This document shows positions 57,581 to 57,676 of a stretch of DNA of 64,000 bases, in pieces. The notes below the pieces were generated by a model. It had not been told where the DNA came from. It searched no databases and saw only the letters and a program-made list of their open reading frames with translations. The translations under genes and the position numbers were made by a program. Numbering within the stretch: position 1 is the stretch's first letter; each line of letters begins with the position of its first letter. This DNA comes from Dictyostelium discoideum. Taxonomy: Eukaryota. The DNA lies in assembly GCA_000004695.1 (NCBI GenBank), contig CM000150.2:4128001-4192000 (forward strand), given 5' to 3'.

Positions 57581-57676
57581 TGGAGAAGAAGGGTATCGAT
57601 CCCTTTACCTTATGGAAATCTGATTATCGTTGCTGTTTATGCAAACCATACGCTCTACCATATGAGCTACATCCCC
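57581..57676 (-). tRNA. tRNA-Ala (anticodon UGC) with an apparent 23-nt intron in the anticodon loop. The intron is at about 57616-57638 on the plus strand.
   Basis: Minus-strand sequence: GGGGATGTAGCTCATATGGTAGAGCGTATGGTTTGCA[TAAACAGCAACGATAATCAGATT]TCCATAAGGTAAAGGGATCGATACCCTTCTTCTCCA. The acceptor has the G3:U70 Ala identity pair. D-stem GCTC/GAGC. Anticodon stem TATGG/CCATA around loop TTTGCAT (U33, A37). T-arm AAGGG-ATCGATA-CCCTT. The overall sequence closely resembles eukaryotic tRNA-Ala(UGC). There is one acceptor-stem mismatch (T6·T67). Confidence 0.6.

Follow-up and report, generated by a model that had tools for sequence, protein, structure and literature searches.

Introduction

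The introns of eukaryotic nuclear pre-tRNAs, such as those of yeast tRNA-Phe and tRNA-Tyr, are short and lie between positions 37 and 38 of the anticodon loop. Phizicky and Hopper (2023; PMC10275265) give complementarity of the intron to N33-N35 as the criterion for a tRNA intron and describe an additional anticodon-intron (A-I) pair, in which C32 or U32 pairs with an A or G at the antepenultimate position of the intron. The N33-N35 helix and the A-I pair together produce a bulge-helix-loop in which both cleavage sites are single-stranded. An intron-containing tRNA-Ala(UGC) has been reported from Lachancea thermotolerans, where it is regarded as a lineage-specific gain (Yoshihisa 2014; PMC4090602).

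We analyzed a 64,000-nt stretch of Dictyostelium discoideum DNA (the window; GCA_000004695.1, contig CM000150.2, 4,128,001 to 4,192,000) that contains a tRNA-Ala gene with extra nucleotides in the anticodon loop. A preliminary description had offered two explanations for it, either a true isoacceptor that carries an intron or a disrupted pseudogene. Published tables already list the gene as AlaUGC-1, and the intron of its family is already a known feature in D. discoideum. We conclude that the site is almost certainly a bona fide nuclear intron-containing tRNA-Ala(UGC) gene, one of eight that each have an intron of 23 nt at the canonical site between 37 and 38.

The AlaUGC-1 intron shares with the canonical pre-tRNA introns its position at 37/38, its short length, the complementarity to N32-N35, the A-I pair, and the predicted 3-nt bulge. 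It differs from them in that Ala-UGC falls outside the usual intron-bearing families and in that the helix is weak, with one G-C, two A-U, and one G-U pair, and is not the minimum-energy fold. The L. thermotolerans gene, which we liken to AlaUGC-1 by description only, is the same isoacceptor with a eukaryotic-type intron in a restricted lineage; as the two lineages are unrelated, the two introns are presumably independent gains. The preliminary description had called introns in tRNA-Ala unusual for eukaryotes, which is a fair statement in light of Yoshihisa (2014) and of a metagenome sample in which 123 of 124 Ala-UGC-like genes carried no insert (the sample was unsystematic and drawn with a permissive pattern, with no dictyostelid among the matches). 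The single match with extra bases, on marine metagenome contig Ga0115006_10410695 (L063:602-664, minus strand), has a stretch from anticodon to variable loop that is 6 nt longer, GCTTTGCATGTGGATATGGGAGG, and could be either an unusually small intron or an anticodon arm of different geometry.

A tRNA-Ala(UGC) gene interrupted at position 37/38

The gene is located on the minus strand, running from 57676 (base 1) to 57581 (A73) over 96 nt. Rfam family RF00005 matched it with 49.1 bits (gathering score 29, E 1.8e-07), placing a 25-nt insertion state inside the anticodon loop, and tRNA was the sole Rfam family matched at the gene. With introns allowed, ARAGORN reported a tRNA-Ala(tgc) with a 23-nt intron and drew the cloverleaf. 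In its default no-intron mode, the sole default tRNA finder tried, ARAGORN made no call at 57581-57676. The features of the locus are as follows.

57581..57676, minus strand: complete tRNA-Ala(UGC) gene AlaUGC-1, 96 nt including A73 (Rfam, ARAGORN -i, published tables)
57640..57676, minus strand: 5' exon, positions 1-37, with the acceptor 5' strand including G3, the D arm, UAUGG, and loop UUUGCA (sequence reading; same in five genomes)
57617..57639, minus strand: 23-nt intron UAAACAGCAACGAUAAUCAGAUU at 37/38 (ARAGORN -i; 22-23 of 23 bases kept in four sister species)
57581..57616, minus strand: 3' exon, positions 38-73, with U38, CCAUA, the variable loop, the T arm, U70, and A73 (sequence reading; published mature AlaTGC)
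57642..57645, minus strand: U32-U33-U34-G35, proposed to form the 5' side of the anticodon-intron helix (partner: intron bases 18-21)
57619..57622, minus strand: intron bases 18-21 (CAGA), 3' strand of the proposed helix (rule of PMC10275265; pair counts)
57658..57669, minus strand: A box, positions 8-19, TAGCTCATATGG (reading against the general consensus)
57592..57602, minus strand: internal B box region, positions 52-62, GGATCGATACC (off-consensus at 54 and 60)
57575..57578, minus strand: TTTT run 3-6 nt past the gene, likely Pol III terminator (sequence reading)
57677..57691, minus strand: conserved 5' leader AAAATTTCGTCAAT, -15 to -1 (orthologue alignment)

The general A box consensus used for this reading is of the TRGCNNAGTGG type. 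The parsed RNA of AlaUGC-1, with the intron in brackets, is GGGGAUG UA GCUC AUAUGGUA GAGC G UAUGG UUUGCA[UAAACAGCAACGAUAAUCAGAUU]U CCAUA AGGUA AAGGG AUCGAUA CCCUU CUUCUCC A. The G3:U70 pair, A73, the anticodon UGC (positions 34-36 once the insert is removed), and the loop UUUGCAU can be read directly from the gene. G3:U70 and A73 are established determinants for alanyl-tRNA synthetase. A pair count that included the orthologues found 20 of 20 cloverleaf pairs to be standard, and 24 of 24 when the anticodon-intron helix was added. The sole blemish is a U6-U67 mismatch, which is common to all D. discoideum tRNA-Ala genes. The G+C content of the gene is 43%, and the window has 17-30% G+C. The D. 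discoideum AlaAGC genes have an identical acceptor stem, including U6-U67, along with an identical variable loop and T arm and a D arm that is the same but for one loop base. They differ from AlaUGC in having no intron (73 bp) and in an anticodon stem of CUCGC/GCGAG rather than UAUGG/CCAUA.

Two published gene tables identify this copy. Table S2 of Spaller et al. (2017; PMC5391098) lists AlaUGC-1 at chr1 4185581-4185676, LysUUU-6 at chr1 4158870-4158942, and IleAAU-4 at chr1 4163571-4163643. Subtracting 4128000 from these coordinates gives exactly the positions of the three tRNA genes in the window, so the Ala gene is the annotated AlaUGC-1. The same gene appears in Table S3 of PMC8163159 as NC_007087.3.tRNA47, AlaTGC, 4185580-4185676, minus strand. 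A neighboring open reading frame for a GH5 protein is 100% identical to DDB_G0270074 of D. discoideum AX4. A literature search that paired AlaUGC with Dictyostelium returned no paper, the Elongator paper PMC7430636 mentions neither Ala nor introns, and the main texts of two D. discoideum tRNA-seq papers hold no gene-level Ala-UGC data, which are present in supplementary tables (PMC5391098, PMC8163159). Collectively, the Rfam match, the ARAGORN call with introns allowed, and direct reading bear out the earlier assignment of a tRNA-Ala with a G3:U70 pair at 57581-57676, to which the minus strand is now added; the ARAGORN call and the parse likewise place the 23 extra nucleotides exactly at 37/38, as had been proposed.

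Conservation of the locus in Dictyostelium

Using the GH5 neighbor, we fetched the syntenic loci from a second D. discoideum assembly and from D. cf. discoideum, D. dimigraforme, D. firmibasis, D. citrinum, and D. purpureum. The locus of the second D. discoideum assembly is 99.8% identical to the window. It holds a tRNA-Ala(tgc) with a 23-nt intron in the same place, as do the syntenic loci of D. cf. discoideum, D. dimigraforme, D. firmibasis, and D. citrinum, and the syntenic locus of D. purpureum holds no tRNA at all. In all four orthologues the exons are identical to those of D. discoideum at 73 of 73 positions. The intron is identical at 23 of 23 positions in D. cf. discoideum and D. dimigraforme and at 22 of 23 in D. 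firmibasis (U22 to G) and D. citrinum (U14 to A). In the flanks, from -115 to -16 and from +7 to +106, the similarity between orthologues is at the level of shuffled sequence.

At four-fold degenerate sites of the GH5 gene, the four sister species diverge from D. discoideum by 13%, 30%, 30%, and 39%. A rough hand estimate from these distances, rather than a fitted model, gives a tree length of at least ~0.77 substitutions per site. By the same hand estimate ~17 or more substitutions would be expected in 23 neutral sites, compared with the 2 seen in the intron, and the 17-nt intron loop changed once across the five species. The splicing endonuclease should not need this 17-nt loop. Judging from these alignments, the gene at the AlaUGC-1 locus, intron included, is under constraint. 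The near-exon conservation of the intron, set against the 13-39% four-fold divergence and the shuffle-level flanks, suggests a constraint at the level of sequence. It may even be that the intron sequence itself, beyond its mere presence, is under purifying selection, although we hold this to be a tentative and rather doubtful reading.

The four orthologues match the D. discoideum 5' leader AAAATTTCGTCAAT with 67-87% identity, and the identity over all pairs is 53-87%; the leader may be a start-site or TFIIIB-related element. A similar sequence, TTTTCATCC, is located just upstream of the Ile gene at 35644-35655 (minus strand). Past the Ala gene, AATTTT or AAATTTT is present in four of the five species, and D. 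citrinum has AATTATTTT.

B boxes and activity of AlaUGC-1

The B box consensus of D. discoideum is GTTCRAnYC (PMC3159450). For the Lys and Ile genes, a GTTCRANYC scan recovered the internal box as well as the external one, a second B-box-like element (the dictyostelid ex-B box) 33-34 nt downstream; at the Ala gene it found no match, either internal or external. This agrees with the preliminary description, which had reported that the Ala gene has no ex-B box, unlike the other two tRNAs. The internal B box of AlaUGC-1, GATCGATAC, has two mismatches to the consensus, at positions 54 and 60. Because all 23 Ala genes share this internal box, its deviation is a family trait rather than decay. The odd T arm GGGAUCGAUACCC is common to all 15 AlaAGC genes, and since the acceptor stems and T arms of these genes match those of AlaUGC-1, neither the U6-U67 mismatch nor the T arm reflects decay of this copy. 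An ex-B box is present at 66% of D. discoideum tRNA genes, about 41 bp downstream, and absent at the other 34% (PMC3159450), so the missing element at AlaUGC-1 is not a sign of decay either.

The orthologues point to loss of an ex-B box at this locus. In D. dimigraforme, D. firmibasis, and D. cf. discoideum, three of the four orthologues, an ex-B box lies ~30 nt downstream (GTTCGATTCCC, GGTTCGACTCC, and GTTCGATTCTC, respectively). The homology of D. discoideum to its closest relative ends 6 nt after the Ala gene and resumes ~1.3 kb later, which indicates that the ex-B box was lost through a D. discoideum-specific replacement or insertion at about 56254-57575 of the window.

This loss raises the alternative that AlaUGC-1 is intact and functional yet contributes little tRNA, having lost the ex-B box that could reinforce its poor internal B box. 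The published integrations of the retrotransposon TRE5-A bear on this reading from both sides. TRE5-A needs a target with a functional B box occupied by TFIIIC and TFIIIB (PMC3159450), and TRE5-A(bsr) integrations at AlaUGC-1 were recovered in 6, 224, and 2 contigs in three experiments (PMC5391098), which suggests that AlaUGC-1 is occupied by TFIIIC/TFIIIB in vivo. The counts at AlaUGC-1 are lower than those at AlaUGC-4, -5, -6, and -7 in the PMC5391098 tables, and with the unbiased adapter primer the count is 2 compared with 47-200 at these four genes. The lower counts may be due in part to the family primer, which has one mismatch to this copy. Integration counts are also noisy and subject to PCR jackpots, and the adapter-primer count at AlaUGC-8 is likewise only 8. 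As all eight genes give the same tRNA, mature reads are not assignable to AlaUGC-1. The identical exons at this locus in five genomes argue for continued selection and for use of this copy. Given the 224 contigs from a single experiment, the share of D. discoideum tRNA genes that do without an ex-B box, and this perfect exon conservation, we consider a weakly contributing copy unlikely.

The intron is shared by the AlaUGC family and removed in vivo

The second explanation offered in the preliminary description was a pseudogene, in which 23 nt inserted into the anticodon loop would have inactivated the tRNA-Ala gene. The silence of default ARAGORN, the U6-U67 mismatch, a G+C content of only 43%, and the absent ex-B box would fit it. 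Against it stands the rest of the family. In Table S2 of PMC5391098, AlaUGC-1 to AlaUGC-8 are all 96 bp long (8 of 8), compared with 73 bp for AlaAGC-1 to AlaAGC-15 (15 of 15). Judged by these gene lengths, the 23-nt insert is present in 8 of 8 AlaUGC genes, which makes it a family-wide intron rather than damage to one copy; a comparison with the other tRNA-Ala(UGC) genes of the genome had been suggested at the outset. AlaUGC-1 has the same length and mature sequence as the family. It differs in lacking an ex-B box and at intron position 22, where it has U and where the published AlaUGC family primer GATCCCTTTACCTTATGGAAGTCTG implies C in at least one other copy. Within the window the intron 23-mer (57639..57617) is unique, with 0 matches expected, and with the whole gene conserved in five genomes a chance resemblance is of no concern.

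The spliced product of the family has also been described. Table S3 of PMC8163159 groups AlaUGC-1 and seven other genes into a single cluster (AlaTGC cluster 41) with the intron-less reference GGGGATGTAGCTCATATGGTAGAGCGTATGGTTTGCATCCATAAGGTAAAGGGATCGATACCCTTCTTCTCCA, and deleting 57639..57617 from the gene yields exactly this reference. Because a U flanks both junctions, cuts at 37/38 and at 38/39 give an identical mature RNA. PMC8163159 is a LOTTE-seq study of mature CCA-ended tRNA, from which we took the read data as published rather than from a mapping of our own. In these data position 37, which directly precedes the splice junction, is mismatched in 97.6-99.1% of reads; the mismatch is A to T and is assigned by the classifier to m1A|m1I|ms2i6A. 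Further AlaTGC signals are reported at positions 24, 26, 45, 47, and 58 at several developmental times. The signature at position 37 is compatible with the m1I37 typical of tRNA-Ala. In the cell the AlaUGC intron is therefore spliced out and a mature CCA-ended tRNA results, a conclusion that is drawn from the literature data and holds for the family. Spliced reads, which had been named as a check on the insert, thus exist for AlaUGC tRNA at the level of the family. Since every annotated Ala gene with a UGC anticodon has the insert, splicing would be obligatory for the Ala-UGC isoacceptor.

A genome-wide survey with tRNAscan-SE 2.0 (PMC13063481, 2026) lists Ala-TGC among the anticodons present and reports only three pseudogenes (Ser-TGA, Leu-TAA, and one undetermined), none of them Ala. 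Together with the same extra 23 bp in all eight AlaUGC genes, the mature spliced tRNA of the family, the intact structure, the mismatch and odd T arm that recur in all 15 AlaAGC genes, and a locus at which identical exons and an intron 91-100% conserved in five genomes lie between randomized flanks, this makes a pseudogene highly improbable. The first explanation, a genuine intron-containing isoacceptor, is the one that proved right.

The main text of PMC13063481 gives nuclear tRNA gene lengths of 69-95 bp, compared with 96 bp for AlaUGC and SerCGA-1 in PMC5391098; AlaUGC-1 is also 96 bp in the window. This discrepancy is probably a one-base difference in coordinate convention. Table S2 of PMC5391098 gives further lengths of 87 bp for Trp-CCA, 83 bp for Tyr-GUA, 90 bp for Thr-UGU, 91 bp for Ile-UAU, 96 bp for Ser-CGA, and 89 bp for Gln-CUG. 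From length only, these families are probably intron-bearing as well.

Structure and proposed processing of the intron

The AlaUGC-1 precursor offers the pairs described for eukaryotic tRNA introns. U32 can pair with A21, the antepenultimate base of the intron, and this A-I pair is kept in all orthologues. The complementarity extends over U33-G20, U34-A19, and G35-C18, which are 100% standard pairs in all orthologues. In the resulting bulge-helix-loop fold, U22-U23-U38 would form a 3-nt bulge that contains the 3' splice site, and the 5' site, A37|U1, would lie in the loop. In ViennaRNA, a different weak local helix between U33-C36 and intron G7-A10 is favored (-2.6 kcal/mol, compared with -0.9 kcal/mol for the bulge-helix-loop). 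The splice sites are unpaired in either fold. The GCAA of the intron is the complement of UUGC in the anticodon loop. The only intron positions that vary among the orthologues, 14 and 22, are both unpaired, as is the position of the C22 implied by the family primer. In a covariation analysis of the orthologues from the five genomes, zero pairs vary, so covariation neither backs nor opposes the structure. The modeled pairing suggests that the AlaUGC intron fits the eukaryotic bulge-helix-loop rule through the U32:A21 pair, with a thermodynamically preferred fold that differs.

On this model, Pol III would transcribe AlaUGC-1 from the internal A and B boxes and would stop at the TTTT 3-6 nt downstream. 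In the precursor, intron bases C18-A19-G20-A21 would pair with G35-U34-U33-U32, with U32:A21 as the anticodon-intron pair. The U22-U23-U38 bulge and the A37|U1 loop would then present the bulge-helix-loop substrate of the tRNA splicing endonuclease, and tRNA ligase would join the halves to give a 73-nt tRNA with G3:U70 and A73 for alanyl-tRNA synthetase. These steps, from Pol III transcription through endonuclease cleavage to ligation, are carried over here from general eukaryotic tRNA biogenesis.

An interruption of another kind (a self-splicing intron, an editing substrate, or an archaeal-type bulge-helix-bulge at a non-canonical site) has nothing specific in its favor other than that the preferred local fold is not the textbook bulge-helix-loop, and we regard it as practically out of the question, since group I and II introns are much longer than 23 nt, the insert sits at the canonical 37/38, an A-I pair and a 3-nt bulge are available, and tRNA is the only Rfam family that matches.

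Neighborhood of the gene

The D. discoideum-specific segment (56254-57575, about 1.3 kb) starts 6 nt past the tRNA gene and takes the place of the ex-B box region that the closest relative retains. No second copy of this segment occurs in the window, and the sister loci that were fetched contain no counterpart. It holds an A tract of ~38 nt (57091-57128), internal repeats ~540 bp apart (56650-56747 and 57189-57285, 91% identity), and a further identical repeat pair (56878-56896 and 57555-57573). One possibility is that it is a truncated retroelement. An exact 16-nt direct repeat, TAAAATTTTTCGTTGC, occurs on the plus strand at 57494-57509 and 57538-57553, 44 nt apart. The heptamer GCAACGA, read on the gene strand, occurs 4 times in the window compared with 0.85 expected, once in the intron (57627-57633, minus strand) and twice just downstream of the gene. 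Both downstream copies belong to the one 16-nt repeat, which lies in species-specific DNA, and GCAA in the intron copy is the complement of the anticodon loop; we therefore judge the triple occurrence to be coincidental.

Two other species also show changes on this side of the gene. In D. cf. discoideum (L007:12869-15427) a called gene of 640 aa overlaps the tRNA-Ala gene, and this call is probably an annotation artifact. In D. citrinum (L006:13256-15010) an extra gene of 584 aa lies between the tRNA and a conserved gene of 604 aa. These differences indicate that the DNA just downstream of the tRNA was remodeled independently in several species.

The interval between the GH5 gene and the tRNA differs as well. 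Here D. discoideum retains only the last 38 codons of a gene for DENR, a SUI1-domain protein (58895-59032, plus strand), and the sister-locus comparison, which included tblastx with a low-complexity filter, placed a whole DENR gene in this interval in five other Dictyostelium species. A complete DENR gene is present at another locus of D. discoideum assembly GCA_054859385.1 (L128:5828-6877), beside syntaxin, ankyrin, and CN-hydrolase genes. The relic at this locus and the complete gene elsewhere indicate that DENR was relocated in D. discoideum; no AX4-named DENR protein was among the search results. The segment that replaced DENR contains a relatively G+C-rich 68-nt direct repeat (57923-57990 and 58030-58097, plus strand; 75% identical, 107 nt apart), located 250-420 nt upstream of the tRNA gene. 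Farther along the window, two near-identical tandem genes for SnoaL-like proteins of 237 aa each are present at 61203-61916 and 63196-63909, both on the minus strand. Each is an internal duplication of a ~118-aa module. D. cf. discoideum has one such copy here, and none appears in the gene lists of the sister species.

Discussion

As an individual gene, AlaUGC-1 has little discovery value, and its spliced product already serves as a reference in tRNA sequencing studies. Its use is rather for calibration. Where every member of a gene family has the intron, its occurrence in an unusual isoacceptor does not point to decay, and the default no-intron mode of ARAGORN overlooked this gene. Should the intron sequence itself prove to be under purifying selection, the doubtful reading raised by its conservation, then the AlaUGC intron would do more than be spliced out. 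It might direct a modification of the junction base A37 or of U34, or set its timing, or it might act as a stable intron RNA.
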